Shown here: in pieces, positions 6,299-59,458 of the stretch
How the letters are laid out: each line of letters starts with the position of its first letter
Position numbering within the stretch: position 1 is the first letter of the stretch
Source of the DNA: an uncultured Porphyromonas sp.
Lineage (GTDB): Bacteria > Bacteroidota > Bacteroidia > Bacteroidales > Porphyromonadaceae
Assembly (NCBI GenBank): GCA_963543315.1
Contig: CAUUAW010000001.1
Coordinates: 79,892-143,891, forward strand
Reading direction: 5' to 3'
DNA: 64,000 bases
The notes under the pieces: model-generated
Seen by the model: the letters and a program-made list of their open reading frames with translations, nothing else
Told to the model about the DNA's origin: nothing
Database searches by the model: none
Program-made: the position numbers and the translations under genes

Positions 6299-6412
6299 AC
6301 GGAAAACTTAAATGATTACACCGGAATAGGCGATTGACTATTCCGGTGTAATCAAATATGCATTCCCGAATTATGGTGTGGCGATTAGCTAAAAAATCGT
6401 CAAAGATCTTCG
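6299..6412. repeat. 22-bp-phased palindromic repeat array (about 5 units)
   Basis: Contiguous units ACGGAAAACTTAAATGATTACA / CCGGAATAGGCGATTGACTATT / CCGGTGTAATCAAATATGCATT / CCCGAATTATGGTGTGGCGATT, then decayed units. Lies between convergent genes. Confidence 0.75.
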
Positions 6413-6530
6413 GAGAGAGCAAGTCAACATACTTTAGCTTGTAGACTCTCGATATGGAAAGGTAGAAGGTTTGCTCTCCTCGTGCAGGAGGTAATCAGGG
6501 GTAATAAGCTTGAAAAATTTCGCACACCAC

Positions 6531-7871
6531 TTAAAGGCAAGGAGACTCTAGTTGTCGAATCTCTATGGCAAGCTCTTGCAATGACTCTCGTGCCGTGTCA
6601 ATATCCTGTTCTAGCAATAGGATCCTCTCAGTAAGGTTGAGATCACTCTCCCCTCGTAGATGATACTCTGTACGTAGACGATCTAGTATCTCCTCTTGCT
6701 TTGCTAGGTCTCCTTGCTGAGTGATATACTCATTATATAGGGATGCCGCTTGCGCTGAGTGAAATTGAGTCGCATGAGTATAGGAAACGTTAGGGGCTAC
6801 AACAAAGACTCCCTTTGCTTCACACTCACGAGGAGTCACGGCAGAGTCTTGCAGAGGTGCGAGGAGTGCTGAGTAGTCTACATCTGCCCTCTGCGTAATG
6901 TGGTAAGGACGCAGCATCGCATATTGACGTAATATGGCTGGATCGTTGGAGGGAACCTCTGGCGTATTATTATCGCTGTAGACAAAGCAGTAGACCGTAA
7001 GCATACCTTGGGGTGCATACCGGTCTGAGACGAGATAACCTAGATGATGCTCTGCATTAAAAGCTAGGAGGAGGTCATCGCCGTAGCTGTTGTATGGTAA
7101 TCCCAAGGGTACGGGCTGTAAATATTCCCCCGAAGGGCTCTGTCTGGTCATATAGATGTCCCGCTTACCTATCCCATTCGTATTGATTGCGGAGAAGTAG
7201 AGAGTGATCCCATCTGGTGCAAGTGTGGGATAGGAGGGATCCCTGAGACTGTCGGGGATAGAGGTGATGATAGTTGCATCTGGCGTGAGGCTAGCCGGCG
7301 TACTTTGTCCAGGCTGCATACCGCCATAGGCGAGACGTATAGGCTCGCCTATAGATACCCGTACAGGTCTTATGTATCGATCTCCACGCTCAGTGAGAAA
7401 GCCTAAGCCTAATGAGTCGCACGAGAAGACTTTGACCCCTCGTTTATTTAGATAATTAGCTAGCAGGTCTTGTGCTATGCTAGTACTATCAGCTATTTCT
7501 AGCCATAATACGTGCCCCATGAGACGCCTTAGTAAGTGCAAGCGGTCGATATAATGTGCTGCGCTCGCCTGCGGATGCCGCATTTTACTCTGCTTATCCA
7601 ATGATGTGGATAGCTCACCTAGACGCAACTCTCTCAAGTAACTCTCCCAGAGAGCAGGAAGATACTTGGGACTTTGCTGTGCTAAGTATTCCCAAGCTTG
7701 GGTGGCTAAATCATTGCGCCCATCTTGCTCTGCTGTCTCTGCTAGGAGTATGGCAGAGGTAGCAGAGAGATGGTTGCTAAAGGACTGTAGGAGCGTATCT
7801 AATTGCTGCCCTCTACCAGTAAAAGACCCTATAAATAGTAGGCAAAGAGAGATGAGTAGTAAGCGCTTCAT
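6531..7871 (-). CDS. hypothetical secreted protein (signal peptide, possible PD40/TolB-like segment, C-terminal coiled coil)
   Basis: 446-aa ORF with an N-terminal MKRLLLISLCLLFIGSF signal. DGITLYFSAINTNGIGKRDIYMT resembles a WD40-like beta-propeller (PD40) repeat. The C-terminus is heptad-rich. Function unknown. Confidence 0.65.
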   Translation of the reverse strand: MKRLLLISLCLLFIGSFTGRGQQLDTLLQSFSNHLSATSAILLAETAEQDGRNDLATQAWEYLAQQSPKYLPALWESYLRELRLGELSTSLDKQSKMRHPQASAAHYIDRLHLLRRLMGHVLWLEIADSTSIAQDLLANYLNKRGVKVFSCDSLGLGFLTERGDRYIRPVRVSIGEPIRLAYGGMQPGQSTPASLTPDATIITSIPDSLRDPSYPTLAPDGITLYFSAINTNGIGKRDIYMTRQSPSGEYLQPVPLGLPYNSYGDDLLLAFNAEHHLGYLVSDRYAPQGMLTVYCFVYSDNNTPEVPSNDPAILRQYAMLRPYHITQRADVDYSALLAPLQDSAVTPRECEAKGVFVVAPNVSYTHATQFHSAQAASLYNEYITQQGDLAKQEEILDRLRTEYHLRGESDLNLTERILLLEQDIDTARESLQELAIEIRQLESPCL

Positions 7872-7970
7872 AAGAGAAAAGATACTGAGGCGTTGCTCGG
7901 AAGACTAAAAAAGACCCAGAGCTTTCGGCTCGTCATGCCGTATGACTCCCGGGATTGCCTTGTGCTGATT

Positions 7971-8930: not shown

Positions 8931-8938
8931 AGATCGCT

Positions 8939-10344: not shown

Positions 10345-11091
10345 TTAATTGCTTTTGCCCTGATTGGCTACGGCTGCTTGTAACTTGGAGATTGTCTCAG
10401 GATCGCCGAGGAAGTAATCTCTCTGCAAGTGCATCTTATCGTCAAACTCAAAGACGTAGGGTATCCCTGTGGGTAGATTGAGTGTCGGAATATCTTTATC
10501 AGAAATTTCTTTGAGATGCTTGACGATCCCTCGGAGGCTATTGCCATGGGCTACGACAATAATCTCTCCGCATTGCTCTAGAGATGGTCGAATGTTACTC
10601 TCCCAGTAGGGTAGGATCCTCGCTACAGTATCCTTGAGCGACTCAGTGAGAGGGAGTTCTTCAGGACAGATCGAAGCATATCGAGGATCATATAGGGGAG
10701 CTCGCTCGTCTGTTGGCTCCAGAGGAGCGGGCGGGATATCATAACTACGTCTCCATATGTGCACCTGCTCTTCTCCATACTTTGCTGCGGTATCCGCCTT
10801 GTTGAGTCCTTGGAGCGTGCCGTAATGCTTTTCGTTGAGTCGCCAAGATTTCTCAACAGGGATCCAATCTAGGTCCATCTCGTCTAGAATGATGTTGAGC
10901 GTCTTGATAGCTCGCTTGAGGTAAGAGGTATATGCTTTGACAAAGCGAAAACCTGCCTTACGGAGCTGCCGTCCAGCTTCATGAGCCTCCTCAATCCCTA
11001 GCTCCGTAAGGTCTACATCAGTCCAACCTGTGAATTGATTGGTTTTATTCCACTCACTCTGCCCGTGGCGTACTAATACAAGTCTTTTCAT
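10345..11091 (-). CDS. gpmA: 2,3-bisphosphoglycerate-dependent phosphoglycerate mutase
   Basis: 248 aa with the catalytic [10 protein letters not shown] motif and the later histidine motif (VVAHGNSLR). Confidence 0.92.
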
Positions 11092-11114
11092 AAATGTGAG
11101 GTAAAAAGGTCTCC

Positions 11115-14100
11115 TTAAGGGTTACTATCCTTTTGGGTCATATCTGTAGATATGATCTGCTGAGTTATGACCTCCCTGAGGGCTCTAAAGGATCCTCCAA
11201 AGGTCGGTAACGCTTGGTCTAGCATCGTTTCGTACTCTGCAGATAGACCACGCTGATATATTAAATCTATGCGTACGAGCTCCATCAATGTAGCAAGAGC
11301 ATAGCGCACCATCGAGTCATTCAATAGAGAGATCTGATGTCGAGGACTTTGCTGGCTGACCCAATAGAGGAGCTGTGCCGTATCTCTGTAGAGAGCTCGG
11401 ATGATCTCGTCACCCTGCTCATCCATTTGTAGGCGATAGTAAGCGTCTGCTAGCGAGATATCCGTCATGGTGTATGGGACTGCCTTGGGAGAGATCACCT
11501 GAGCACATTTCAATAATACCTCCTTGGCCCGTTGGCGGTCTCCTCGCTGTAGGAGAGCTTGCCCCAGTGTTGCAAAGAGGCGAGAGCGATAATAATAAGA
11601 GATGTTGCGACGAATGTTATCATCAAAGTAGATATTTGGGTTATCGGCATTGAAGTAACGATATTTATTCATCACTAAATCATACATTCGCTCTACTTCT
11701 ATTTCATAAGGTGTCCCAGCAACAGCAACAGGATTGAAGCGTTGTGACATTCCCACCTGAGACATATACAGACGTTGGTTGGAGAAAACATCTTGAGGAG
11801 CAGATGTAACCCACATGATAGGTCGCTGCCACTGTGAGGCGCCCAACATGTCTAGAACAAAGAGAACATCCCTTGTCGCAGCAATTTTACCTTGTAAAGA
11901 AAGCAGTGTAGACTCTTGTTTAGGTAGCCCACTAAGCTGTGGAAAGTTTTGTGAAACAACAACCGTATCAACTGGTAGTGTGATTTGGTCTGCCGGTATT
12001 TGTGCTTGACCATAGGCGACAATCCTAGTAGCCTCCCTCATTGCTTGGTCAAAAGGCATTGGAGCTGCACTTATCGGACGGACCAATGCATGGGAATTGG
12101 AGACAAAGAACTCAGGACTCATATATTTGTTAGGTATGGGCTCTGCCTCATAAGTCTGGCGGAGCATATGTTTGCCATACCATTCTGATTGGAGATAGCT
12201 AAGGTTACTTACCTTAACATCCGTACGTACTCCCTCTACTTCTTGAGCATACCATAGAGGGAAGGTGTCATTGTCCCCAAAGCATAGCAGCACTGCATTG
12301 GGATCACAACTAATAAGGTAATTATATCCAAAGTCACTAGCCAAGACTCGTCCTGAGCGATCATGGTCATTCCAGTTCTCCGACGCCATCTGTATCGGTA
12401 CGAGTAGACCAACAACTGAGGCAAGCGATGCTGTCAGTATTGGCTTAAGCTTGGCGCGGCTCAGTAGCTCATACAGTCCTGCAACACCAAATCCTATCCA
12501 TATCGCAAAGGCATAGAAAGATCCTGCATAAGCGTAGTCTCGCTCACGAGGTTGTCCTGGTGTCTGATTAATGTAGAGGATAATCGCCAAGCCCGTCATG
12601 AAAAAGAGGGATAATGTAATCCAAAAGGCTTGCATCCCCTTCCTCCGTCTCGACACTTGGTAGGCAATCCCTAGGAAACCTAAGAGGAGAGGTAGTAGAT
12701 AATAGGTATTGCGCCCCTTATTATTGAGGAATTGGTCGGGTAGATCTTTAGTCTTACCCAGAGCTATTTGGTCGATAAATGAGTAACCCGTAAGGACCCC
12801 ACCTTTGAGCATGCCTCCATCTCCTTGTAGATCATTCTGACGCCCGATAAAGTTCCATCCGAAATATCTCCAGTACATATAGTTGATTTGGTAACGGATG
12901 AAGTATTTCAAGTTATCTGACATAGAAGGCTTGGATAAATCATTTAAATCGCGGTTTATCCATAAGTTGTAAGCTCTTTGATGTTCCGGCTGTGAGGAGT
13001 ACATACGTGGGAAGAGCATCTTGCTTCCCTTGGCATACTTAACCTCAGGTTGATTGTAGATTTTTACATATTCATCTGGTTCATCAGAGCTTCTCTTGAC
13101 TTTGGGGGCGTACACAGGTTTACCCTCCTCCATTGCAATGGGTCGAGCTACGTAGGTTGCGCTGTATAGGTGAGGGATGGCCCCGTACTGTTCTCTGTTT
13201 ATGTAGCTCTTGATCGCAAGAGCTGTATTAGGTTCATTTTGATTCATTGGAGTCCCTGCCAGAGAGCGTACGAGGATCACACCATAGGAGCTAAAACCTA
13301 TCATGATTACTAGCATGCACATTTGTGCTGTGTGCAGATATTGAAGTGGCAGCTTCTTGTTTTGAAAGAGGTATACAGCCAGGGCTATTGTAATAATCAC
13401 TCCTAGCCAAGTGGCTCCTCCGAAGTAAGGAATCCCGATAAGACACCATGAAAGGATAAAAGAACTTACTATTAGGTTGCGAGATCGCTCTCCACGTTGG
13501 TAGAGGATGAGTGAACCAACAAGGACAAATGTCAGGAGAAGGAGATAAATATAGAAGCCTCTATTGTATGGCATCTTCAGTCCATTTACTACCCAGCGAT
13601 CTACAGTTCCTCCAATAGCTACGACACCTTGCATAATGCCAAACATAATAACTGCGATCAATAAGAAAGAGATGAGTAGTGCCGTAACGACACCCTTAAA
13701 TGATAAATTGTCGTGTTTGCGGAAATAGTAAATTAGAGCCATTGCAGGGATACAAAGTAGATTCAAGAGATGTACTCCTATACTAAGACCCATTACATAA
13801 GCGATCAGTACGATCCATCGATCTGATCGCTTATTATCAGCACGATCACTCCACTTAAGCATCAGCCAAAAGACCAGAGCCGTCAGAAATGAGCTAAAGG
13901 CATATACTTCACTCTCTACAGCACTATACCAAAAGGTGTCAGTAAAGGTATAGAGCAAAGCCCCCACAAGACCAGCCCCCATGATAAGGATGGTCTGTGC
14001 CAATGTCGGTATAGGCTCAGTACCCTCAGGAATCAAACACTTGGTACAGGGGGAGGCTCCTGGTAATACGACACGACGCACCAAATGAGTAATACTCCAG

Positions 14101-18355: not shown

Positions 18356-18735
18356 ATCTTCTGTTGTTTTGGATGGATTAAAAGAGTATAAGGTCAGCCG
18401 AGCCAGAAGTATCTTCTTCCTGATTCTCTAGGGAATGTGTGACTTATGGTAAGTTATGTATTGAAGTCTAATCTGTCGTATCGATCCATTTAGAGTAAAG
18501 GATTAGGATAGTAAATGGCTTTGCAAAAATACGCTCATGCATCCCACATGAAAATACCTAGCTCTAGGTATTTTTATGTTGACGCTGTACCTGAAACGCG
18601 CGATCCGTTTGACATGACCATATGGAAGATGCGATCATGCAATAGAGCACTCAGCAGAGATCGAGTATACGGAGAGTCTCTAGTCTTTATTACAGAGATA
18701 TTGACAAACGATGACGAGATAAACAGAGATTTCTT

Positions 18736-18890
18736 ACGGAGATTTCAGATGGAGATTAGCTAATAGTCGATCGACCATTCCGGAGATATCAATTGACAAT
18801 TCAGGAATTATCGAGCTGTCAGCCCGGAGGAAATCGCTAAATATTCCGTAAGGATTCTCAAGCCTCTGATATGACTCTCTAGAGCGATTC
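18736..18890. repeat. 22-bp-phased palindromic repeat array (about 7 units)
   Basis: Units ACGGAGATTTCAGATGGAGATT / AGCTAATAGTCGATCGACCATT / CCGGAGATATCAATTGACAATT / CAGGAATTATCGAGCTGTCAGC / CCGGAGGAAATCGCTAAATATT / CCGTAAGGATTCTCAAGCCTCT and further units. Lies in a divergent promoter region. Confidence 0.75.
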
Positions 18891-19131
18891 TGGCTTCCTA
18901 TATACCCTTTCAATATTATTTCGTACATTTACGGAGTCTAAAATGCCGGGGTGTGGCGTTACCGCAGGTCATGCATACAGTCTTGTTGGCGTAATAGACT
19001 AATAATGAGCTTTAAATGCATTTGTCTTTTGACACCTTTATGTAGAGGATCTGTAGGCAGGTTTAGGCTGTCTACCCCCAGCTCTTGTACTAATCTCCCC
19101 CCTCCTATGACAAAAAAAAATAAACAATATA

Positions 19132-23041: not shown

Positions 23042-23944
23042 ATGATTGTATATCCTCACGCTAAGATAAATCTCGGTCTACGCATCCTGCATCGTCGTCC
23101 CGATGGTTACCATGATATAGAGAGCCTTATGCTTCCGATTGGATGGTCAGACTCTCTCTCTGTCAAGATACTTCCATCTCGCGAATCCATTGGGTATGTG
23201 AGAGATAGCTATCAAGTCAGGGGCTTCCCCGAAGTTCCTCCCTTAGAGGGGAATTTGGTCTACAAGGCGATGCAATTACTGCGGCAGCATCATCTCGAGA
23301 TCCCCTCGCTATCCCTTACTCTAGATAAACGTATCCCGACACAAGCAGGGCTGGGAGGAGGATCTGCGGACGCTGCCTACACTCTAATTGCTGTCAATGA
23401 GCTGTGTCACCTAAAGCTAACGGTAGAGCAATTAGAGGGGATGGCAGGATTGCTCGGTAGTGACTGTCCTTTTTTCATCCGGGGTTACCCTGCTCTAGCC
23501 ACAGGTCGAGGTGAGGTGCTTACACCCATTCCAATGCCTGAGGTACTCCGTGGGGTGTGGCTTTTTGTCATCAAGCCTCCGCACGGGGTTCGCACGGCAG
23601 AGGCTTACAGTCAAGTCTCACGTCATCCAGAGACCGAGGGTACATTACTCTCATTGCTGCAAAAGCCTATAGAGCATTGGCGAGACACCATCGTCAATGA
23701 CTTTGAGCAGGTCGTCTTCTCCCAATATCCGCTATTGGAGCATCTGCGAGATGTACTATACCAAGAGGGGGCTTACTATGCAGCTATGTCAGGATCTGGG
23801 ACTGCCATCTACGGGCTTTTTGCTAGTAATCCGCTAAAGGATCGCTCCACCCCCCTAGGAGAACTACAGACAAAATACGCAACATGGCTAGAGCGTTTGG
23901 GATCGGGTAAAAATAATTCCCGAGTGGTAAAATATTCCTCCTAG
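23042..23944 (+). CDS. ispE: 4-(cytidine 5'-diphospho)-2-C-methyl-D-erythritol kinase
   Basis: 300 aa with N-terminal AKINLGLRIL and the GHMP kinase motif PTQAGLGGGSADAA. Confidence 0.85.
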   Translation: MIVYPHAKINLGLRILHRRPDGYHDIESLMLPIGWSDSLSVKILPSRESIGYVRDSYQVRGFPEVPPLEGNLVYKAMQLLRQHHLEIPSLSLTLDKRIPTQAGLGGGSADAAYTLIAVNELCHLKLTVEQLEGMAGLLGSDCPFFIRGYPALATGRGEVLTPIPMPEVLRGVWLFVIKPPHGVRTAEAYSQVSRHPETEGTLLSLLQKPIEHWRDTIVNDFEQVVFSQYPLLEHLRDVLYQEGAYYAAMSGSGTAIYGLFASNPLKDRSTPLGELQTKYATWLERLGSGKNNSRVVKYSS

Positions 23945-24075
23945 AATACTTGATTGACAATTCCCGAAAGAGCGATTGGGTATTCCGGAATCCTTCCTTT
24001 GTCACGACGGAGTCTTTGGCTAAGCATACGGGAGAGGATGCGCTCCTCAATCGAAGAGGTCTTCAGAAAATCACT
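23941..24075. repeat. 22-bp-phased palindromic repeat array (about 6 units)
   Basis: Units CTAGAATACTTGATTGACAATT / CCCGAAAGAGCGATTGGGTATT / CCGGAATCCTTCCTTTGTCACG / ACGGAGTCTTTGGCTAAGCAT / ACGGGAGAGG... Lies between the convergent ispE and mfd genes. Confidence 0.7.
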
Positions 24076-28376: not shown

Positions 28377-28457
28377 AAAGTATGATATATAGATTGATAG
28401 TTATCGTGCTATTATTAGAGATAGGTACTCCTCGCTCTCGTCTCAAATATAGTGGCA

Positions 28458-28548: not shown

Positions 28549-28750
28549 TTTGGATGAAATCATCGATATTACCAGAGCTCTTTTTCATTTCTTACGGGAG
28601 GCTCGAATCTGCATTCCGGAAAGATGAAATGACATTTACAGAGTAGTCAAACGATCTCTCCGGTAATATTAAAACCGTGTTTTGGAGTAAAAAACCAATG
28701 GACCCCGAACTCTTTTTTCAAATAATCCCGTGGTAGGAATTTCACCTCCC
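28549..28750. repeat. 22-bp-phased palindromic repeat array (about 8-9 units, decaying), immediately downstream of cas2
   Basis: Units ...ACCAGAGCTCTTTTTCATTTCTT / ACGGGAGGCTCGAATCTGCATT / CCGGAAAGATGAAATGACATTT / ACAGAGTAGTCAAACGATCTCT / CCGGTAATATTAAAACCGTGTTTT / ... / CCGAACTCTTTTTTCAAATAATC / CCGTGGTAGGAATTTC... Confidence 0.7.
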
Positions 28751-28818: not shown

Positions 28819-29109
28819 TCATATGAGTAACACGCCTTCGGGGTCTACGCCCTTTGTTTTGCCAATGGTAGTTATCTTAGTCTGATAGTTAGAGCCAAGA
28901 TGGTAAATGCGTAGGGAGTCGCTCTCTAAGTCTATAGTCTCTGCAAGTGATATCTCTAGCTCTACTCTTTGGGCTGGAGACACAAGGCACTCGAAGACAG
29001 AGTTTTGGACACGCTGACCATAGTCTTGGCATATCTTAGCGACTTGGCGTAGTCTCCTAACCCCATCGGGGGAGGCCGTGTTGACATCGTAGGCAATTAG
29101 CAAGTACAT
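28819..29109 (-). CDS. cas2: CRISPR-associated endoribonuclease Cas2
   Basis: 96 aa. MYLLIAYDVNT...RVQNSVFEC is the canonical Cas2 N-terminus. Overlaps cas1 by 1 nt. Confidence 0.93.
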   Translation of the reverse strand: MYLLIAYDVNTASPDGVRRLRQVAKICQDYGQRVQNSVFECLVSPAQRVELEISLAETIDLESDSLRIYHLGSNYQTKITTIGKTKGVDPEGVLLI

Positions 29110-30140
29110 TAGCTCTGGTTTAGAAAGGCGGGATAGTCATCGAGGTCTCCTCTGAAACATCGTGCGAGGAGCTGCGCTTGGACATAAGGTAAAAGTCCTA
29201 TGGGAATATGCTCTTTGAGGAATGGATGTGTGATCTCCTCTCGCTTACGTTGCTGCCATGCAGCGAGAAGAGTCTTGCGAGCTGCTTCTTTAAGTAGGTA
29301 CCCGTCTTCCCCTTGAGCAATAAAGTCTGATGGAGTAATCTGTCTCTTGTTAATTACGGTCAGGACAAAACGGTCTACGACATAGGCTCTTAGCTCCTCC
29401 ATAAGATCTAACGCAAGACTCGCCCTACCAGGTCTATCGACATGGAAAAAGCCAACGTATGGATCCAGTCCTACGGCCTCTAGAGCTGCGGAAACGTCAT
29501 GTGCTAGGATGGTGTAGAAGAATGAGAGGAGGGCATTCGTCTCATCTTTGGGAGGTCGTCTCGATCTTCCCTCAAAGGCAAACTCTCGGCGCCGGATGAG
29601 GTGATGAAAGAGTGCAAAGTATTGCTGTGCGGCTAAACCCTCTATTCCCAAGACACCCATACGATCCCTCTTATATATCAGACTTTTCTGTAGGATCTTG
29701 AGTTGATTGAGAACCTCTTGAAAGGCTTCTTGAACCGCACCTATTGGGTGATAATCACGTAGATATCGACTGAGTACAGCTCGCTGATTGATTATCTTAC
29801 CTGAGATAAATAGTGTAGCGAAATGGGTTGCCGCCGGCTCATCGTCTGCAATACGATACTGAGTACGTCTCAGTAGCACATTGCCCCTAGTAGGACCCTC
29901 TAGCGATCCAATGTAATGCCCTGTCGGAGTGAGGAAGGTTAGCTTGACACCTTGCTGTACACATAGCTGCATGAGCCCCGGCGAAGCTCCCATGTAGGAG
30001 AACGAGATAATCCCCTCTAGATTGTGTATTGGTATGCGAAAGGTCTCCTCGCCATCTACTCGAGCGACTACATTAGTCCCATCTTTAAGTAGATAGACGT
30101 TGGGAGTGAGGATATAGAGAGTGTTGAGAAGCTTTCTCAT
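29109..30140 (-). CDS. cas1: CRISPR-associated integrase Cas1 (type I-C)
   Basis: 343 aa with a Cas1 fold pattern (LNTLYI...LLKDG; C-terminal alpha-helical domain with E/H/D residues). Sits between cas4 and cas2. Confidence 0.93.
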   Translation of the reverse strand: MRKLLNTLYILTPNVYLLKDGTNVVARVDGEETFRIPIHNLEGIISFSYMGASPGLMQLCVQQGVKLTFLTPTGHYIGSLEGPTRGNVLLRRTQYRIADDEPAATHFATLFISGKIINQRAVLSRYLRDYHPIGAVQEAFQEVLNQLKILQKSLIYKRDRMGVLGIEGLAAQQYFALFHHLIRRREFAFEGRSRRPPKDETNALLSFFYTILAHDVSAALEAVGLDPYVGFFHVDRPGRASLALDLMEELRAYVVDRFVLTVINKRQITPSDFIAQGEDGYLLKEAARKTLLAAWQQRKREEITHPFLKEHIPIGLLPYVQAQLLARCFRGDLDDYPAFLNQS

Positions 30141-30814
30141 GAGATCAGTATATCGTGATGCCTCAGGTAACTCTTTGCAGATCGATGCGAGGCAATCCGT
30201 GGTAAACAGTCATCCAAGAGAGAGCATGAGCGACACTGACGAGTATAGTGAGACGGGATAGGAGCTCGCCGTGAGAAGGCCTCGTGCATCTTACGAGCTA
30301 CAGACCGGCATTCAGCTCGTAAAGAGTCCTCCATCTCAACGAGTAGGCGATGTCGCATCTCCCCATAGTAGAGATATCCCTCTGAAATAGATACCTGATA
30401 CATCTCTTCTAGAGCTATAACTTGAGCACACAGCTGCAATTTGTCAGCAAGATGATACTTGGGCTTGCCACGCTTATACTCGACTGGGGCTGCCCGCCAC
30501 TCTCCTGGATACTTAGAATGCCGAAATGGTCTCAGATTTCGATCCTGCTGGGGTGTTAGCTCAACAGCATCGGATAGCCCATAGAGACCTAGAGTATAAG
30601 AGATCAGAGGTACACGCCTCATGGTGATCGTATCACCGACTCTAGCACTCAGCTCAGGCTGATCAACACGCCTGTGGAGTATCTGCCCCAGAGCAGTGAG
30701 GTGGTTATCATGCCATATCTGCTCTAGGGTGATCAGCTGCCACTGTCGAGGGCAGAAGCAGTAGTGCTGTATCTCGGAGATAGTCAATAGCTCCTCCTCT
30801 CTGTAGTGTCTCAT
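30137..30814 (-). CDS. cas4: CRISPR-associated exonuclease Cas4 (RecB-like, Fe-S)
   Basis: 225 aa with an N-terminal Cys (YCFCPRQW), a C-terminal CRSCSLLDDC cluster and a RecB nuclease core (DAVEL...EYKRGKPK). Overlaps cas1 by 4 nt. Confidence 0.9.
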   Translation of the reverse strand: MRHYREEELLTISEIQHYCFCPRQWQLITLEQIWHDNHLTALGQILHRRVDQPELSARVGDTITMRRVPLISYTLGLYGLSDAVELTPQQDRNLRPFRHSKYPGEWRAAPVEYKRGKPKYHLADKLQLCAQVIALEEMYQVSISEGYLYYGEMRHRLLVEMEDSLRAECRSVARKMHEAFSRRAPIPSHYTRQCRSCSLLDDCLPRIASHRSAKSYLRHHDILIS

Positions 30815-30885
30815 AGGGAGAGGACTGAGAATAAGTCCCAGTCGCAGTGCTTGTACTACGATTGGGACTCTTATACCAGTGAGGA

Positions 30886-31767: not shown

Positions 31768-31778
31768 GGTTGTATGGT

Positions 31779-34345: not shown

Positions 34346-34349
34346 ATGT

Positions 34350-36674
34350 CTATAGTATCAGAGGTTCTATTGTTAAGTTTAGTTGTATACCGGTTTCCTC
34401 ATCATACAACCTTCCGTTGGTTAAGTAAGCAAAGCCACTCTCGTTTATCGAAATGCTTCCTCCCAAAGTTAAACAATCTTTTTCACAAATACCTACAGAA
34501 TTTCTATGAAGTTGCCTATAATCTTGTCGTGTGAGCGGGATCTTGTGCTGAAGTTTTCTGATGAGCGATTTACCCACCTCGCCATAAGGCACAACGATCG
34601 AGATACTTTTATCCTCTATATACTTAAATCGTTCGCTCGCCTCCTCGTAATCAAAGCGCAAACCCTCACATCGATCGTTATCATCTCCCCATAATAAGGA
34701 GCTTATCTTCTGCTTATCAAAGCTACCAATCTCGTGATAATAGGCTCTGTAATAACGCTCAATATCTGCTCGCTCTGGAGTCTCTCGACTAGCTAGCCGG
34801 TCTAATAAATCCTCCAATGCTCCCTGCGCCCAGCTCATCTCACCCGACACTTGAGAGCCATCCGTAAGACGGAAAATATATACCTTTCCAGGCGACATCA
34901 TATGTCCCTCACGGTTGCATCGTCCTGCCGCCTGCATGACAGAGTCTAGTCCGGCAATCGCGCGGTATACTACGGGGAAGTCGAGATCCACACCTGCCTC
35001 TACTAGCTGTGTACTAACGACTCGCACGGGAAGTCCTCCGCTCAAACGCTCCCTGATCTCCTGAATGCGCTTCTGAATGTGCGCCGAGCACATTCTCCGC
35101 GAGAGGTGTATCAGCCCCTTGCTCTTCTTATCCCGACTTTGTAATGCTCTATATAGCTGAGCAGCATCGTTGCGACTATTCACAATACAGAGGAAGCTCT
35201 CGTACTGGGATAACCGCTCTGCCAGCTCATCTGTAGAGAGCTTGAGAAGATTCCAGTCATAAGTAACCTTATTAAATGGAGTAAAACTCTCGGCGTCATA
35301 AGGTACGACCTCTTTGATAGGCTCTTCAAATGAAAAATAGTTATGCCCGATTCTCTTGCTATCCGATAATATATCCTGGTCAAAGATTGGCAGCGTAGCG
35401 GTACAGAAGAGAGGCTCTACACGGAAGGCATAGTGGAGACTCTCCAATACCCGAAGCATAGGATTGAGAAACTTAGGCGGAAACATCTGCACCTCGTCAA
35501 AGACAACGACCGAATTGCATACGTTATGTAGCTTGCGACAGCGACTCACACGATGGGAGAAGAGAGACTCGAAGAACTGCACATTGGTCGTCACGACGAG
35601 TGGCACGTCCCAGTTTTCCGTCGATAGCTTACTGTACTCCAAGGCCTCATCCTCCCGCTCCTTAACATCCAGATCCGAGTGATGCTCCAGCACATTGTCC
35701 GCGCCAAAAACCTCTCTAAAGGTCTCTGCCGTCTGAGTAATTATAGAGGTATATGGGATAACGTAGATAATCCGATCGCATCCATTTGTCAGCGCATGCT
35801 CTATTGCCCACATCATGGAGGAAATAGTCTTGCCCGCACCTGTGGGGAGCGTGAGCGAATAAATACCCCTTTTCGATATCCTACCATGATTGCGACATTG
35901 GTCGAGGAAGACAGCTCGCGCCTCATTGATCTGCCCCTCTCGATTAAAATGCGATACATACGCCTCCAATTGCTCTTGCATCTGCTCTAGCGAAGCCTTA
36001 GCACTCTGACGGATAATGCTTTTGTCCGGAGACATAAACCGCTCCGTGTCGAGGAAGTCTGCGTCGACCAAGCAAGAGAAGAGCATACGAATCAGCAGGG
36101 GATAGTCCTCTTTGTCTAGATCATCCCACGCATTTCCGATCTCCTCGAGAGAGACCTTGTCGAGATATGACTCAAGCTGATGAGAGTCGGCAGCAAGTCC
36201 CTTGAGAAGGGGATCTACAAGCCTTTTTTTACTTGAATTATCAAACAGAGAACGAAATGCCGCATCATCGTACAATCCCCGATGGTGGCTTGCGATACAA
36301 AGGGAGAGTATCTTGTGCAGAGCTTCTCCCCACCCCGCTCTCTCCAATTGATTTACATAGAGAGCTCCAGTAGGACTATGCGGAGTATGCCAAGCTGTCA
36401 AGGAAGTGTCTAGCCCAGACTCCCGACGTATATATCTCTGGAAACCCTCTTGGTACTTGCCCACATCGTGAAGGAGTCCCAGCAGGTAACCAATCTCGCC
36501 AAACTCTCGGCAAGCGGTGATGCGCTCAGCATAGCTTTGCGCCAACTCAGCTACGCCGAGTAAATGCTCTAGTAGCGGCTGTGTCTCAAAGGAGCCATCA
36601 GCAAGTACTCTCACGTGAGCAATATTCTCTTCATAACTCATAGGTACAGTAAACTTTTTAACGGTAGAGCTCAA
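34350..36674 (-). CDS. cas3: Cas3 HD nuclease / SF2 helicase
   Basis: 774 aa with an N-terminal HD domain (LLGLLHDVGKY, ASHH), helicase motifs (LPTGAGKT, VVFDEVQ) and a Cas3 C-terminal domain. First gene of the I-C operon. Confidence 0.93.
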   Translation of the reverse strand: MSSTVKKFTVPMSYEENIAHVRVLADGSFETQPLLEHLLGVAELAQSYAERITACREFGEIGYLLGLLHDVGKYQEGFQRYIRRESGLDTSLTAWHTPHSPTGALYVNQLERAGWGEALHKILSLCIASHHRGLYDDAAFRSLFDNSSKKRLVDPLLKGLAADSHQLESYLDKVSLEEIGNAWDDLDKEDYPLLIRMLFSCLVDADFLDTERFMSPDKSIIRQSAKASLEQMQEQLEAYVSHFNREGQINEARAVFLDQCRNHGRISKRGIYSLTLPTGAGKTISSMMWAIEHALTNGCDRIIYVIPYTSIITQTAETFREVFGADNVLEHHSDLDVKEREDEALEYSKLSTENWDVPLVVTTNVQFFESLFSHRVSRCRKLHNVCNSVVVFDEVQMFPPKFLNPMLRVLESLHYAFRVEPLFCTATLPIFDQDILSDSKRIGHNYFSFEEPIKEVVPYDAESFTPFNKVTYDWNLLKLSTDELAERLSQYESFLCIVNSRNDAAQLYRALQSRDKKSKGLIHLSRRMCSAHIQKRIQEIRERLSGGLPVRVVSTQLVEAGVDLDFPVVYRAIAGLDSVMQAAGRCNREGHMMSPGKVYIFRLTDGSQVSGEMSWAQGALEDLLDRLASRETPERADIERYYRAYYHEIGSFDKQKISSLLWGDDNDRCEGLRFDYEEASERFKYIEDKSISIVVPYGEVGKSLIRKLQHKIPLTRQDYRQLHRNSVGICEKDCLTLGGSISINESGFAYLTNGRLYDEETGIQLNLTIEPLIL

Positions 36675-36728: not shown

Positions 36729-36882
36729 CCCACTGTTTTTCTCAATAATTACGGGATAAAGAGTCGGTAATTACAGAATAATCGATAGACGATTACGGAA
36801 TAGTCATCCCACCATTCCGGATTTGTCAGAGATTGCCTCCGGAGCAAAATTCAGATAATTTCGAGAGCGAAAATTCTCTTTC
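36729..36882. repeat. 22-bp-phased palindromic repeat array (about 7 units), immediately upstream of cas3
   Basis: Units ACGGGATAAAGAGTCGGTAATT / ACAGAATAATCGATAGACGATT / ACGGAATAGTCATCCCACCATT / CCGGATTTGTCAGAGATTGCCT / CCGGAGCAAAATTCAGATAATT / TCGAGAGCGAAAATTCTCTTTC. Confidence 0.78.
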
Positions 36883-42780: not shown

Positions 42781-42950
42781 TCGGAGTAGACAATCCAGGA
42801 GTCGGGAAACAAAAGTCTTATATCTCTGAAAAATAGTTCCCGAATAGTCAAATGAGATCTCCCGAATAGCCAAATGACGATTCCGGAATAATTAAGCACG
42901 CCTTCCGGAGCTATCTTATCTTTATTCTCGGAGAGAATAGATGACTCTGT
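42781..42950. repeat. 22-bp-phased palindromic repeat array (about 7 units)
   Basis: Units TCGGAGTAGACAATCCAGGAGT / CGGGAAACAAAAGTCTTATATCT / ... / CCCGAATAGTCAAATGAGATCT / CCCGAATAGCCAAATGACGATT / CCGGAATAATTAAGCACGCCTT / CCGGAGCTATCTTATCTTTATTCT / CGGAGAGAATAG... Lies between the divergent pdxJ and rbfA genes. Confidence 0.78.
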
Positions 42951-47441: not shown

Positions 47442-47469
47442 CCCTATAATTTCTGTCGAAAAAGTTGTC

Positions 47470-47584
47470 GAAAACTCATTGATAACTTCATGCTAACTTA
47501 TTTGCCTATCTCGGGAAATTATATAGTTACAATAAAGATCCTAACCTCACAAATAAGTTAGCATGAAGTTATCAATGAGTTTTC
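47470..47584. repeat. perfect 35-bp inverted repeat with a 45-bp spacer
   Basis: 47470-47504 GAAAACTCATTGATAACTTCATGCTAACTTATTTG is the exact reverse complement of 47550-47584. Lies between the convergent MATE and porin genes. Confidence 0.9.
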
Positions 47585-47850
47585 ATCAAGATATTAACAG
47601 GTACAGCAGGTGGGGAGACGACCATAAACGATTGTGAGCATCTCATTATTTACTGTACTCTATGTAGCTTCCAGAGACGATTAGAGAGGAGTCTTATAGA
47701 GATACATTAAGTGTTGCACAGGGATAGTTATAGACATATTCAACCGACTATTATCAACATCATAGATATGTAAGTATATATTCTTACTCTATAATATACT
47801 GATGATGTAAAGAGATCTGTCAGTAACCTCTCGTAAAGAGTTTGTACAAT

Positions 47851-49185: not shown

Positions 49186-49285
49186 GGGATATTCATCTCC
49201 ATAGAGCTTAACCAAACAATATGTCGATCTGTAGAGCTGTCTCTGTACTACAGTTCGTTTTGTTTTGTGATAGATGAGTTTTTAT

Positions 49286-49374
49286 ACGGGAATGCCTATT
49301 TGGTTATTCCGGAATAATTATTTCCGTACTCCGGAATAGTTAATTGGTTATTTCGGAATTATTTGTCTTAGAGT
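49286..49374. repeat. 22-bp-phased palindromic repeat array (4 units, close to consensus)
   Basis: Units ACGGGAATGCCTATTTGGTTATT / CCGGAATAATTATTTCCGTACT / CCGGAATAGTTAATTGGTTATT / TCGGAATTATTTGTCTTAGAGT. Confidence 0.8.
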
Positions 49375-49395
49375 ACTGTGTAAACTCTTTTTTTG

Positions 49396-52361: not shown

Positions 52362-52364
52362 TTG

Positions 52365-55019: not shown

Positions 55020-55172
55020 ACGAAATAAGTCGATAATAAGGAGTAATGGGCTCCAAATAATTACGGAATAAGGAGTTAATTCTCCGGGAATGCTCGATCC
55101 ATTATTTCGTAATACTCGTTTGGATATTCTGGAATTATGAAATCATTATCCCGAGATAAGGCGTAAGATAGC
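55020..55172. repeat. 22-bp-phased palindromic repeat array (about 7 units)
   Basis: Units ACGAAATAAGTCGATAATAAGG / AGTAATGGGCTCCAAATAATT / ACGGAATAAGGAGTTAATTCTC / CGGGAATGCTCGATCCATTATTT / CGTAATACTCGTTTGGATATT / CTGGAATTATGAAATCATTATC / CCGAGATAAGG... Confidence 0.78.
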
Positions 55173-56387: not shown

Positions 56388-56394
56388 TTATTGC

Positions 56395-57480: not shown

Positions 57481-57612
57481 ACTCGTCGTAACGAAATTTT
57501 TTACGGGATTATCTGGAAGTATTCACGGGATTAATCTTCGGTAATTACGGAGTCGTAGATCTGTTATCCCGTAATTGTTGATTGGTTATTCGGGAATGAA
57601 TTTTTTCTTCTG
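57481..57612. repeat. 22-bp-phased palindromic repeat array (about 5-6 units)
   Basis: Units ACGGGATTATCTGGAAGTATTC / ACGGGATTAATCTTCGGTAATT / ACGGAGTCGTAGATCTGTTATC / CCGTAATTGTTGATTGGTTATT / CGGGAATGAATTTTTTC... Confidence 0.8.
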
Positions 57613-57876
57613 AGCTTGTTGTCTTTTGCCTTTATTTGTATTTTAGCGCATGTGTTTGGGATTAGAGGTTTATCTCTAGTGTCTCTCGGCAACATAAATC
57701 ACTAATCACAAATTCATATGAGAAAGGCAAACACACTCCGTCTGGAGAGCTCTTTATTGGCTCTTTAGCTCTACGATCCTCCTTCCTGAGTGGGAGATCT
57801 ATCCAGTACGAGTAGGTAATAAGCGCGTAATTATAGCTCTATAAAAAGGAATCCCATAATCATTTCTAAAATATTT

Positions 57877-59337
57877 ATGAAAAGACCATTACTCCTAAGG
57901 GTTACAGCCATTCTCCTCTTAGGTCTTGTAAGCCTGTTCACCACGACCCCACTTTTGTTGGGGCAGGATGTTCCTGACAAAGCTTTAGTCATCTATTCGC
58001 ACGATGCTAACCAGCAGGTGACGAAGCGTTACTTTACCATCTCTGAGGTGGATAGTATACTCTTTGTCTCAAAGACATTGAAACAGCCAATTACATTTGA
58101 GGTAAGTGACGTCATAGCCACCTCATCTTCGCTCTCCATCTCCGTAGTCCCATCTGATGATACTACGACCTATTACATCGGAGTCGATAATAAGGAGCAT
58201 TATGACCAGCACTTTACCTCAGACAAAGCTTATCTGGATAATAAGCTCAAGGTATTGAATGCGATGGCTGGTGCGCATGGTCAGACGCTTTCGGAGTATT
58301 TGCAGACCATTCTTAAGAGGGGTGCTGCGACTCATAAGGAGGATGATCTTTACAGCGATACAGAGTACTACATCTGTATCTTCGGGCTCAGCACTTCAGG
58401 AGAGGTTACAAGCCCGTTGTATAAACAGGAAGTGAAGACTTTACCATTCACACCGACGGGAGACACGACTTTTGAATTACAGCTTACGGCACAGACAGCT
58501 AGTTCGCTCACGGTACAAGTAACCCCTTCGGATGTAAGTACGAACTACTTTTACGGGATCCTAACTAAGGAGCAATATGCTACTTATAAATCACCCGAAG
58601 AGGCAGTATCTGATCTCATCTTTAATGCCGAATTGACAACTGACGTAGACTGGAGTGATCCTCAGAACACACTCCGAGGAGCGCAGACGATTACACTCTC
58701 TAATCTCAAGTCCGAGACAGAGTACGTCTTACTTGTCTTTGGGATCTCTGCAGAGGGAGAGCAAACGACAACCGCTGCTATCTTGCAGGCGAAGACGTCT
58801 GGAGACGCGCTATTCTTGGAGAGCCCAATACCGTTTGGATCTAAGTACGAAGCCATTGCAGCTTATGAGGCGTCTAAGGGCAGTATGCTGGATAGTGATT
58901 TATCGGGTTCCCAGGGGATGGAGTATATGTATGTGTATAGAGTGCAGGAAGCTCCGTCATTGATGCGGATATACTTTGTCTCACAGGACGGTGCTGGTGA
59001 GCTCAATGAGTACTGGGCTGTGGAGGATCGTTACAGCTCTGTATTTGAGATGATGGATGGTCAGTTAATCCTCTCCAAGAGCTTTGTAGCAACCTTGACA
59101 CAGGCTGGTTATACGGCTCCAGTTTTGGGGGAGGGTAGCAACTATTTGTCTAGCAAGGGAGATCAATACGACCTGATGATTATGCCGACAAAGGGAGGTG
59201 ACCTAGGTATCTCGCAAGAGAAGATCGTTGTCCTAGACTTCGCTCCTCGTGGTGAGCTCCTCCCAAAGAGTACTGGCTTTCTTGCTTTACAGAGAATTAA
59301 CTCTCGGAGCCGTGATAGGCGATTACCAGATAACTGA
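57877..59337 (+). CDS. hypothetical secreted protein with an internally duplicated domain
   Basis: 486 aa with a signal peptide. Two similar segments are present (SSLSISVVPSDDTTTYYIGVDNKEHYDQHF versus SSLTVQVTPSDVSTNYFYGILTKEQYATYKS; each is followed by ...TEYYICIFGLSTSGEVTSP / TEYVLLVFGISAEGEQTT). Confidence 0.7.
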   Translation: MKRPLLLRVTAILLLGLVSLFTTTPLLLGQDVPDKALVIYSHDANQQVTKRYFTISEVDSILFVSKTLKQPITFEVSDVIATSSSLSISVVPSDDTTTYYIGVDNKEHYDQHFTSDKAYLDNKLKVLNAMAGAHGQTLSEYLQTILKRGAATHKEDDLYSDTEYYICIFGLSTSGEVTSPLYKQEVKTLPFTPTGDTTFELQLTAQTASSLTVQVTPSDVSTNYFYGILTKEQYATYKSPEEAVSDLIFNAELTTDVDWSDPQNTLRGAQTITLSNLKSETEYVLLVFGISAEGEQTTTAAILQAKTSGDALFLESPIPFGSKYEAIAAYEASKGSMLDSDLSGSQGMEYMYVYRVQEAPSLMRIYFVSQDGAGELNEYWAVEDRYSSVFEMMDGQLILSKSFVATLTQAGYTAPVLGEGSNYLSSKGDQYDLMIMPTKGGDLGISQEKIVVLDFAPRGELLPKSTGFLALQRINSRSRDRRLPDN

Positions 59338-59458
59338 TAATTTGCTCGGGAATAGTCAATCGATATTTACGGAATACGCAGAAGACTATTCCCGAGTGAT
59401 CATTTTACAATTACGGAGTAAAATATCGAGGTTTCTCGGATAAGTACACGTATAATCT
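59324..59458. repeat. 22-bp-phased palindromic repeat array (about 6 units)
   Basis: Units TCGGGAATAGTCAATCGATATTT / ACGGAATACGCAGAAGACTATT / CCCGAGTGATCATTTTACAATT / ACGGAGTAAAATATCGAGGTTTCT / CGGATAAGTACACG... The first, weaker unit overlaps the stop of the upstream gene. Confidence 0.78.

Follow-up and report, generated by a model that had tools for sequence, protein, structure and literature searches.

Dispersed arrays of phased 10-bp palindromes in the intergenic DNA of an uncultured Porphyromonas

What kind of element occupies the large intergenic spacers of an uncultured Porphyromonas, and what would hold it to a 22-bp phase? The question is raised by a single 64-kb stretch of contig (the window), in which an original prediction had placed ten arrays of contiguous, degenerate 22-bp units and had offered four explanations for them: a REP-like element mobilised by a RAYT-type transposase, phased binding sites for a dimeric protein, mRNA 3'-end hairpins, or a DNA-uptake signal.

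A discrete class of phased arrays

Chains of units in 22-bp phase were sought with a weight matrix in 82.6 kb, made up of the 64-kb window and 18.6 kb of flanks taken from conspecific contigs, with Markov-shuffled DNA as control. The search returned 14 chains of 56–82 bits, four in the flanks and ten in the window, the latter being exactly the ten loci proposed. Scored with leave-one-array-out matrices, the 14 arrays still reach 47–75 bits, against a shuffle maximum of about 20–23 bits and 16.8 bits for the next-best chain in real DNA. No chain falls between 17 and 47 bits, so the arrays form a discrete class. Base-identity autocorrelation in the window's intergenic DNA is 0.303 at lag 22, 0.288 at lag 44 and 0.282 at lag 66 over a background of about 0.25, whereas the window's coding DNA has no peak at these lags, and masking the 14 arrays removes nearly all of the lag-22 signal. 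The motif ATTCCGGAAT, with at most one mismatch, occurs 15 times against 1.67 expected, and core pairs 22 bp apart, with at most three mismatches, occur 19 times against 0.08 expected, all 19 within nine of the ten loci. The density of CGGAAT is about 20-fold higher in intergenic DNA than in coding DNA. The original observation is thus confirmed. Nothing found speaks for chance, compositional bias or an assembly artefact; the excess of phased core pairs, the leave-one-out scores and the presence of the same array sequences in more than 15 independent assemblies already refute that reading, whose probability is negligible.

The consensus unit is CGGAATAATCAATTGATTATTC, with a 10-bp palindrome, ATTCC|GGAAT, as its core. 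In interior units the core keeps the consensus at 78.5% of positions and the spacer at 51.4% (Fisher p = 8e-20), with implied divergences of 0.34 and 1.13 substitutions per site, retention being scored against the within-genome consensus and not between orthologous arrays. Four further arrays on other contigs, partly ascertained on their cores, give 76% and 47%. The 12-bp spacer between cores is AT-rich and near random. The strict phase that had been claimed holds in 55 of 61 unit steps, which are exactly 22 bp, the other six being out of phase. The matrix is palindromic (r = 0.95 against its own reverse complement), and nearly all of its information lies in the CCGG-centred dyad. That dyad stands as predicted; the second one, TCAATTGA, is a weak tendency of 0.07–0.34 bit per column. 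The description as alternating 11-bp half-sites is likewise right about dyad symmetry but overstates the inner half, and a 10-bp palindrome every 22 bp is the better wording. Arrays have 5–8 units, rather than the 4–9 first counted, and span about 110–175 bp.

The arrays are organised as wholes, in both the order of core quality and the variants at their edges. From left to right core quality runs 6.3, 7.5, 8.1, 8.1 and 5.9 out of 10, highest in the central units and lower at the edges, where the cores bear an outward-facing GTAAT variant: TTAC|GG occurs 22 times left of the array centre against three times right of it, and its mirror CC|GTAA six times right against twice left (p = 0.0017). 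Spacers are as similar within an array as between arrays (identity 0.333 and 0.335). Aligned in pairs, the arrays score 24 and shuffles 16, a difference that the shared cores explain, and the signal of common unit order is faint. Flank alignments (left with left, right with right, left with the reverse complement of right) give 12.4–13.0 against 12.1–12.4 when shuffled, and no terminal inverted repeats, conserved leader or tail, or shared flanks were found at the arrays. Since units are no more alike within than between arrays and the flanks are unrelated, neither recent tandem amplification nor copying of a single master explains the pattern.

Positions and gene contexts

Arrays occur one per spacer, at one per 5.9 kb, and account for 22% of the intergenic DNA. 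The claim that they fill the large spacers is upheld: among spacers of 190 bp or more, arrays occupy 10 of about 13 within the window and 14 of 17 over the full 82.6 kb. All 14 are intergenic, but the statement that none enters coding sequence needs amending, as two cover the final 35–47 bp of a gene, ispE in one case and in the other the gene that ends at 59337. Convergent, divergent and tandem settings are all represented, as had been noted; divergent promoter regions hold half of the arrays, three begin 13–63 bp from convergent stop codons, and no fixed distance to promoters or stop codons was found. By Pfam, most flank housekeeping genes, and several flank LRR surface-protein genes at 55–63 kb.

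The ten arrays of the window, none assigned a strand, are given here with chain scores followed by leave-one-out scores. Array 1 (6300–6432; six 22-bp units; 74 and 69 bits) lies between a convergent ABC transporter gene (+, ending at 6160) and an unknown-protein gene (−, ending at 6531). It holds a 29-nt inverted repeat, has an RNA folding z of −7 and, alone among the arrays, shows a terminator-like hairpin and T-run. The divergent spacer between a DUF438/hemerythrin gene (−) and recJ (+) contains array 2 (18671–18846; 7–8 units; 82 and 74 bits), on the upstream side of a recJ leader showing cross-species conservation; a counterpart sits at the same relative place in L135 and is absent from L009 and L134. 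Between convergent ispE (+) and mfd (−) is array 3 (23898–24029; six units; 63 and 57 bits), whose first two units form the final 47 bp of ispE, and a 1-bp indel in an A-run at 23909 alters the IspE C-terminus in some strains. The weakest array, array 4 (28551–28704, trimmed core region 28595–28660; three good and four weak units; 56 and 47 bits), lies between cas2 (3' end 28819) and the folD start (28376), upstream of the folD TAnnTTTG boxes at 28444 and 28458. A type I-C cas operon separates it from array 5 (36752–36861; five units; 64 and 59 bits), which has cas3 (−, start at 36674) on one side and an ABC-2 permease gene (−, end at 37006) on the other.

Tandem Repeats Finder reports a period of 22 for arrays 6 and 7, with 85% matches for the former. 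Array 6 (42840–42950; five units; 66.5 and 62.5 bits) is in the divergent spacer of pdxJ (−) and rbfA (+); the RbfA Pfam match begins at residue 45, so the true start codon of rbfA is probably beyond the array. Array 7 (49266–49375; five units; 68 and 63 bits) separates a divergent unknown gene (−) from corA (+), and a TAnnTTTG box (49396) follows 20 bp downstream of its end. Starting 13 bp past a stop codon, array 8 (55021–55151; six units; 69 and 63 bits) has a U32 peptidase gene (+) and an LRR protein gene (−) converging on it. The last two are array 9 (57504–57613; five units; 58 and 52 bits), in a divergent spacer, and array 10 (59304–59457; 74 and 66 bits), which sits between tandem + strand genes and has four strong units at 59348–59435 with weak units at its edges.

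Known repeat systems and relatives in the genus

The arrays are an apparently undescribed, lineage-specific repeat family of this uncultured Porphyromonas. The original prediction had not recognised a described Bacteroidota family in it; no Rfam family matches the unit, the BrickBuilt unit of P. gingivalis differs, and no description was found in the literature. In kind the family is akin to REP/BIME, Neisseria dRS3/NIME and BrickBuilt. Like the RAYT-mobilised REP/BIME (REPIN) elements of enterobacteria and pseudomonads, the arrays (14 per 82.6 kb, with a palindromic matrix) are extragenic, palindromic, clustered in alternating orientation, high in copy number and present in every gene-orientation context. 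REPs, however, are 20–40-bp stem-loops with variable spacing, compensatory stem maintenance, a linked RAYT and a GTAG/CGTC tag that is part of their definition (PMC3733652), none of which was found here: the tag appears in no column of the matrix or consensus, and neither the 64-kb window (by Pfam) nor the called flank genes contain a RAYT or other transposase gene. Complementarity of mirrored columns is at shuffle expectation (z = −1.10 and −0.37 for the two dyads), so compensatory changes are lacking as well, and the proposed RAYT-mobilised REP-like element fits poorly.

The Neisseria repeat dRS3 (ATTCCCNNNNNNNNGGGAAT; ATTCCC-N8-GGGAAT) is a 20-bp unit in intergenic arrays, proposed as a recombinase site (PMC1797815). 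It shares with the present family conserved inverted ends with an unconstrained centre (here, core against spacer retention), intergenic clustering, hundreds of copies, G+C peaks at the cores with A+T-rich DNA between, proposed binding of a protein (the recombinase), and nearly the same half-site, ATTCC/GGAAT. Its halves are separated by N8, whereas here they abut and 12 bp lie between cores. NIME arrays interpose RS elements of 19–214 bp without fixed phase, vary in length between strains, lie near variable surface genes and belong to a different phylum; here there are no RS families and the period is fixed at 22 bp. The likeness is probably convergence rather than homology.

BrickBuilt, a MITE/minisatellite of P. 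gingivalis with the 23-nt unit AGAYCATARTATCCTCTCRTRTG (PMC4596501), resembles the arrays in genus, in spacerless tandem repeats of about 22–23 nt and in its strictly intergenic, dispersed loci. Its unit is non-palindromic, its 19 copies consist of near-perfect repeats of variable number, and its leader and tail carry terminal inverted repeats matching IS elements; the present arrays are palindromic, degenerate outside the core, about ten times denser and without such flanks. A MITE of this type was rejected on these grounds and because the copies do not align to a shared master. A MIRU-like minisatellite was rejected on the equal spacer identities and on unit number, which is constant in 15 conspecific loci, and a CRISPR array because the 22-bp units are contiguous and the window has no 28–37-bp repeat family despite the nearby cas operon. 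Plasmid centromeres, iterons and multi-operator arrays, such as R1 parC and the 22-bp iterons of R6K, offer contiguous repeats at integral helical turns and rows of dimers bound cooperatively on one face; the arrays, too, have dyads at integral turns and a site conserved independently of its spacer, and in a gut bacterium a dual ATTCCGGAAT operator with 22-bp spacing is present. Those systems, however, are single loci beside the gene for their binding protein, whereas the present arrays are dispersed, by extrapolation in hundreds, with no linked protein gene.

Across 15 conspecific assemblies unit number is invariant and the sole array variant is a 1-bp indel; length and position are identical in all strains examined, and SNP density is low (2 in 1,319 bp of array DNA). 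In the databases searched, even the nearest sister species reaches no more than about 67% identity in IspE. Analogous 21–23-bp arrays occur in sister Porphyromonas species, built on other palindromic cores, and some of them have clearly been copied recently. Genomes of the P. uenonis clade have a composite element made of 21–23-bp units with palindromic cores, its copies near-identical between loci and species and variably present at orthologous spacers; P. somerae has ATTCCG-N8-CGGAAT units at a 22-bp period; and in L135 an IS3-family element sits inside a related array.

Binding platform, inert repeat or hairpin

Among the four explanations first offered, phased binding sites for a dimeric protein fit best, because core and phase persist amid near-random spacers; strictly intergenic, tandem, phased arrays are at odds with a DNA-uptake signal. 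Tentatively, the arrays are read as a lineage-specific interspersed element that may serve as platforms on which a dimeric protein binds cooperatively along one face of the helix. We infer protein binding, its cooperativity and the mobile origin of the family alike, the last with support from the near-identical and variably present P. uenonis-clade element. Each core would bind one dimer; a centre-to-centre distance of 22 bp is two helical turns, which puts all dyads on one side of the helix, and adjacent dimers would touch across the 12-bp spacer, so that an array could nucleate a short cooperative protein filament. The likeliest partner would be either the enzyme, a recombinase or transposase, by which the family once spread, or a nucleoid-associated protein of the host that now uses the arrays as architectural marks at transcription-unit boundaries. 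REP/BIME elements serve as binding sites for gyrase, IHF and Pol I, and it is to enterobacterial BIMEs, which bind gyrase and IHF, that the host-protein option is likened. The discrete score class, the invariant unit number and the three perfect cores amid unrelated spacers at 6433–6498 of L186 are also credited to a platform.

Could the arrays instead be structure-forming palindromes, either REP-like hairpins moved by an IS200/IS605-type RAYT or RNA hairpins for termination or mRNA 3'-end stability? The consensus is self-complementary, a perfect six-unit array would fold at −92 kcal/mol, and folding z is −3 or lower in five arrays; array 1 has its hairpin and T-run, three arrays start close to convergent stops, and four contain, in phase, a symmetric variant core, ATTAGCTAAT. 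Folding is not generally maintained, however: mean z is about −2, on the + strand |z| stays below 1.6 in 8 of the 14 arrays, no better than shuffles, and terminator-like sites number 17 against 12.6 ± 3.5 expected, with no overall enrichment. No transcript ends in divergent promoter regions, the setting of half of the arrays; the REP tag is missing, and no RAYT was seen among the genes of the window or the called flank genes. Because complementarity does not exceed that expected from column composition, each half-site matches the consensus independently, which is how protein sites behave and stems do not. Hairpins are an unlikely explanation, the 3'-end option of the original prediction included.

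The main rival, possible if somewhat doubtful, is a selfish interspersed repeat without present function, a relic of a non-autonomous REP/BIME-, NIME- or MITE-like element that spread in the species ancestor, with core and 22-bp spacing reflecting a past need of the mobilising enzyme and copies now inert. Strictly intergenic placement, one per spacer in every gene context and at no fixed distance from promoters or stops, agrees with it, as do the lineage-specific units, BrickBuilt and the recently copied relatives in sister species, gain and loss at orthologous spacers, the IS3-family insertion in L135, the faint unit-order signal and an arm symmetry like that of paired transposon ends. Against it, terminal repeats, leader, tail and flank similarity are lacking, no two arrays share spacers, no transposase occurs in the 82.6 kb and there is no continuum of older, weaker arrays. 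Neutral decay from one master also predicts equal divergence of core and spacer, and several indels per array, indels being about 5–10% of substitutions in bacterial non-coding DNA; only six steps are out of phase. As retention was scored within the genome, selection on cores and copying of core plus spacing alone both fit. Recombination substrates of the kind proposed for dRS3/NIME, serving a site-specific recombinase or phage/IS integration and exchanging neighbouring genes, are improbable. The dRS3-like half-site and the P. somerae units speak for them, with the L135 insertion and the LRR surface-protein neighbours; most arrays, however, flank housekeeping genes, no recombinase or prophage is nearby, and length and position are the same in all strains, unlike the dynamic NIME arrays (PMC1797815).

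The reading as binding platforms has its own difficulties. Within 82.6 kb the arrays have no linked gene for a DNA-binding protein or a transposase. In relaxed B-DNA 22 bp is 2.1 turns, so that each site is turned by about 34 degrees from the last unless the twist is adjusted by the protein or by supercoiling. Sister species have different core sequences, so a platform needs protein-site co-evolution or repeated replacement of the family. A precedent for the geometry is a gut-bacterium promoter in which two ACATATTCCGGAATATGT operators lie exactly 22 bp apart.

Delimitation and anatomy of the arrays

The original prediction of a family of 22-bp arrays, drawn from ten intergenic loci with the palindromic core ATTCCGGAAT, is borne out by phased chain search, autocorrelation, word counts and shuffles, all of which agree. 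Base identity in the intergenic DNA of the window peaks at lags 22, 44 and 66 (0.303, 0.288 and 0.282 against a background of about 0.25), peaks that are absent from its coding DNA. The core at no more than one mismatch occurs 15 times where 1.67 matches are expected, and core pairs spaced 22 bp, at up to three mismatches, number 19 against 0.08 expected, every one within the ten loci. Tandem Repeats Finder by itself detects only the two best arrays. Through exact-protein look-ups, parts of the window were recovered in 15 conspecific copies, along with 18.6 kb of additional flanking genome, and window and flanks were joined into an extended piece of 82,573 bp. A chain search combining a weight matrix with dynamic programming, in which steps of 20-24 bp were allowed and departures from 22 penalized, found 14 chains of 56-82 bits in these 82.6 kb: the ten loci and four more at window coordinates -5238, -2694, 64119 and 70294. 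After these, the highest-scoring chain anywhere, coding DNA included, has 16.8 bits, the best Markov shuffles give 20-23 bits, and a leave-one-out matrix trained on the other 13 arrays still gives every array 47-75 bits. The arrays are a discrete class and not the upper end of a continuum, because the lag-22 signal left in intergenic DNA once all 14 are masked (0.271 vs 0.258 +/- 0.0075) barely exceeds background. They sum to 1,870 bp, or 22% of intergenic DNA, at 39% G+C; the window stands at 46.5%. A metagenome scan for two perfect cores added arrays of the same family, of 56-74 bits, on three further contigs (L177, L186 with two arrays, and L216), which are other parts of the window genome or of a very close genome.

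Each array holds 5-8 units, and 55 of 61 steps between units are exactly 22 bp. The position matrix correlates with its own reverse complement at r = 0.95, and its information is held by the ten columns ATTC|CGGAAT, at 0.6-1.0 bit per column. Of the two dyads originally proposed, the second, TCAATTGA, is real but faint, because the columns of the 12-bp spacer are weak compared with the core: they show only a slight A+T-rich palindromic tendency, AATCAATTGATT, at 0.07-0.34 bit per column, and interior units match the consensus at 51.4% of spacer against 78.5% of core positions (Fisher p = 8e-20). One of the contigs fetched from databases carries three perfect cores with unrelated spacers between them. 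Units within one array are no more similar than units from different arrays, and local alignments between arrays found nothing beyond the shared cores. Positional homology between arrays was likewise rejected, local alignment and spacer-register tests of spacer order giving a faint signal at most. The 70-bp flanks on each side of the arrays show no similarity to one another, and no terminal inverted repeats of the arrays were found.

Core quality peaks in mid-array, with mean matches out of ten of 6.3, 7.5, 8.1, 8.1 and 5.9 over five position bins. Edge cores carry an outward-facing variant, TTAC|GG lying on the left in 22 cases and on the right in 3, and its mirror CC|GTAA on the right in 6 and on the left in 2 (p = 0.0017), so the whole array is roughly two-fold symmetric. 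Word counts had hinted at a replication-linked strand polarity (TACGG 13 vs CCGTA 5), which was rejected when a leave-one-out strand test favoured the plus strand in no more than 9 of 14 arrays, by 3 bits on average; left/right differentiation within arrays, not a shared orientation, explains the bias. A minor symmetric core, ATTAGCTAAT, in which AGCT replaces CCGG, stands in phase in four different arrays (window 6384, where it reads ATTAGCTAAA, and 18755; extended piece 64160; L186 469). Across the whole window it is not enriched, with 3 matches vs 3.6 expected; either a further type of site or a remnant of unit order in an ancestral element may explain it.

Could the palindromes act as hairpins at mRNA 3' ends, as had been suggested? 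A perfect six-unit array would fold at -92 kcal/mol, and the actual arrays surpass shuffles by only a modest margin (mean z about -2), with |z| < 1.6 for 8 of the 14 on the plus strand. Only array 1 (6300-6432) looks like a terminator. At neither dyad is there any excess complementarity of mirrored positions over column composition (z = -1.1 and -0.4), and because covariation is missing, selection for hairpins is excluded.

Host genome and genomic setting

A protein encoded on metagenome scaffolds as long as 528 kb is 100% identical to the IspE of the window; of named relatives, P. uenonis and uncultured Porphyromonas species come closest. Since these reach only 62-67% identity, the window species is a rather isolated Porphyromonas. 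Several LRR surface proteins and a type I-C cas operon accompany ordinary Bacteroidales housekeeping genes in the window, where a scan found no tRNA. Changes in unit number between strains, one of the comparisons named with the original prediction, were seen in no array: the number is invariant across 15 conspecific assemblies, and within arrays 1,319 bp show 2 SNPs, the A-run of an edge unit having a single 1-bp indel.

In the extended piece there is one array per spacer; of 17 spacers measuring 190 bp or more, 14 are occupied, and shorter spacers are without any. The flanking genes are convergent for 3 arrays, divergent for 5 and tandem for 6. Overlap with the Bacteroidota -7 box (TAnnTTTG) was never seen, nor was a constant spacing from arrays to -7 boxes or stop codons found. 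Two arrays enter the 3' ends of genes. At ispE, the first units of array 3 (23898-24029, between ispE and mfd) encode the last 15 residues of the protein (23898-23944), which has 300 aa where relatives have 281-289 aa, these units supplying the added residues at the C-terminus. Several strains have a 1-bp deletion in the A-run at 23909, giving a 295-aa IspE with a shifted tail that ends in IIPEW.

Other features lie among the arrays. The only long convergent spacer without an array, between matE and a gene of unknown product, holds a 40-nt inverted repeat (47465-47589; 95% complementary, 45-nt loop) that yields a spurious sub-threshold Rfam match to a plant miRNA precursor (E = 1.3e-5) and may terminate transcription in both directions or be some other small element. 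A leader of about 230 bp 5' of recJ (ATTATTTCGTACATTTACGGAG.CTAAAATGC...TATGACAAAAAAAATAAAACAATATA; window 18895-19131) is kept in species whose IspE is only 62-67% identical to that of the window (L135 320-535, L134 5885-6105 and L009 5890-6104, all contigs of the P. uenonis clade), and its conservation suggests a conserved promoter and 5' UTR element. The minus strand at 28819-36674 carries a complete type I-C cas operon (cas3, cas5d, cas8c/csd1, cas7, cas4, cas1 and cas2), and no CRISPR repeat-spacer array was found anywhere in the 64-kb window. The neighbouring arrays 4 and 5 (28551-28704 and 36752-36861) were ruled out as CRISPRs, having no repeat-spacer structure. In the strain of contig L004 a 1,022-bp deletion (window 31695-32716) joins csd1 and cas7, and in that of L005 the called cas4 product has 228 aa, not 225, lacks a Pfam match and adjoins a 1-bp indel at 30667. 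Decay of the system is one possibility, a CRISPR array situated elsewhere another.

Related arrays and known repeat families

Four P. uenonis-clade contigs of 51-54% G+C (L009, L010, L134 and L135) also show an intergenic autocorrelation peak, at 21-22 bp. Their composite element of about 200 bp is built of 21-23-bp units with the palindromic cores CTTCGGAAG, CTCCGTGGAG or CCACGTGG. Its centre is near-identical across loci and species, the outer units retaining only the cores, and because of this near-identity the family was evidently copied or homogenised recently. In the spacer 5' of recJ, the window species and L135 have an array and L009 and L134 have none, so arrays are gained and lost. 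In L135 an IS3-family element with HTH_Tnp_1 and rve ORFs (10469-12320) is inserted within an array of this type, with units on both sides, which hints that palindromic-core arrays serve as insertion targets. The clade also has separate arrays based on heptamers (TTAGAGA / ATCTAAT), whose higher-order periods are 14 and 21 (L009 11148-11294, beside 21-bp arrays; L134 781-825).

A wider contig scan with the pattern CGGAAT-N16-CGGAAT-N16-CGGAAT was biased by that pattern, and the matches listed, which do not extend to the window species, are mostly unrelated 22-bp tandem repeats from many phyla. Among the matches listed are spacerless 22-bp arrays in P. somerae (CGGAATGCATTCCGCAYGCRTA) and in other Bacteroidales. 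The matches listed also include near-perfect spacerless arrays of Leyella stercorea and Prevotella spp., with 4-7 copies of the 22-mer CGGAATCYGATYGGRCGGCGRA, which includes the palindrome TCCGATCGGA (L033, L054, L056, L062, L072, L108, L114 and L121). They occur at several loci per genome in several species, with flanks not conserved by eye, and may be a separate undescribed Bacteroidales repeat family. A further set among the matches listed consists of degenerate 22-bp-phased arrays with kept CGGAAT and CGTAAAT (or CCGTCYGATT) blocks separated by variable positions (L012, L029, L042, L075, L094, L102, L104; L015, L037, L086, L116; L164, L188), from Burkholderiales, Pseudomonadales, Acidobacteriota and other phyla. 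They resemble the window family in style, with conserved blocks and free spacer at 22 bp.

Closest in architecture among known systems are the dRS3/NIME arrays of Neisseria, which share conserved inverted penta- or hexamer ends, ATTCC(C)/(G)GGAAT, a centre free of constraint, an intergenic array setting and a proposed binding of recombinase. Unlike the window arrays, they keep no fixed phase, have RS elements between their units and are dynamic. REP/BIME elements are an analogue in distribution alone. What defines REP families is a tag, GTAG or CGTC, together with a maintained stem (PMC3733652); the arrays possess neither, and the suggestion of a REP-like element moved by a RAYT-type transposase finds no transposase or RAYT among the window genes. 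BrickBuilt of P. gingivalis, in the same genus, has a similar period and a different build, and identity with it was rejected on unit sequence and period (a 23-mer with leader, tail and TIRs). Rfam gave nothing on the arrays at gathering or E-value thresholds, in keeping with the initial failure to recognise a catalogued family. By the tests run, the window family is a member of none of these three.

Proposed binding platform or possible relic of spread

The family is one of the bacterial interspersed extragenic repeats; its probable origin, as suggested by the sister families, is a non-coding element that spread. Do its arrays have a present function? If core and spacer both began as consensus, their implied divergence is 0.34 vs 1.13 substitutions per site, a difference in retention that is hard to explain by neutral decay of copies. 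Hard to explain in the same way is the 22-bp phase, kept amid near-random spacers: bacterial non-coding indels generally arise at 5-10% of the rate of substitutions, so several phase breaks per array would be expected, and 6 are seen in 61 steps. Nor does neutral decay easily account for the missing tail of weaker, older arrays, of which the chain search of the extended piece found none. Because cores and phase are kept, a weak tail is missing and hairpin selection is excluded, the most economical account is that a protein dimer would recognise each dyad core, adjacent dimers touching along one face of the helix. That the arrays are binding platforms for a dimeric protein is a tentative prediction, to which we give somewhat less than an even chance.

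However, the retention was scored against a within-genome consensus, and a copying process that specified only core and spacing would give the same picture. Such copying, with no present function, seems to be the case for Neisseria dRS3, with its conserved ends and free centre (PMC1797815). Arrays that are functionless relics would still have to account for cores kept far better than spacers, a kept phase and the missing weak tail, and we regard this reading as possible and only a little less likely than the platform. The two are weighted in this way because retention rests on the within-genome consensus and because the databases searched hold no sister species near enough for an orthologous rate test, the conspecific contigs all being about 99.8% identical and the next relative having 67% IspE identity.

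A broader proposal, which we consider unlikely, is that phased arrays punctuate most Porphyromonas transcription-unit boundaries as predicted platforms for a lineage-specific dimeric protein, with core switching between species. The putative protein would be a nucleoid-organising factor or a domesticated recombinase, with the arrays as its loading or binding platforms, and the recognition core would have switched among ATTCCGGAAT in the window species, TTCGGAA, CTCCGTGGAG and CCACGTGG in the P. uenonis clade and GGAAT-N2-ATTCC in P. somerae. If the arrays are such platforms, they would form a co-evolving protein-site system over about a fifth of intergenic DNA.

Few parts of bacterial genomes are as poorly understood as REP, NIME and MITE repeats, and apart from BrickBuilt we know of almost nothing described for interspersed repeats of Bacteroidota. 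The present family is unusually clean, with a single array to a spacer, an exact two-turn phase, a 10-bp dyad core free of hairpin covariation, and spacers that provide an internal neutral control for the cores; the choice between selfish relic and binding platform is therefore directly testable. If a binding protein exists, this clinically relevant genus of anaerobes would have a new factor for chromosome organisation or recombination, and the core switch between species would be a natural system for protein-DNA co-evolution. In practical terms, the arrays mark operon boundaries, they lengthen ispE at the least among ORFs, and predictions of promoters, terminators and sRNAs in Porphyromonas genomes of this kind could be confounded by them.

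A further observation bears on the geometry of the platform reading. Contig L144 (4760-4815) and about 30 near-identical human-gut metagenome contigs carry a sigma-70-type promoter, TTGACA-N17-TATAAT, 5' of a small gene. Two 18-bp palindromes, ACATATTCCGGAATATGT, lie there exactly 22 bp apart, one of them in the stretch that separates the -35 box from the -10 box. The arrangement has the look of a classic dual operator, its host an unrelated gut bacterium or a mobile element, and shows that a geometry of this kind is in use elsewhere.
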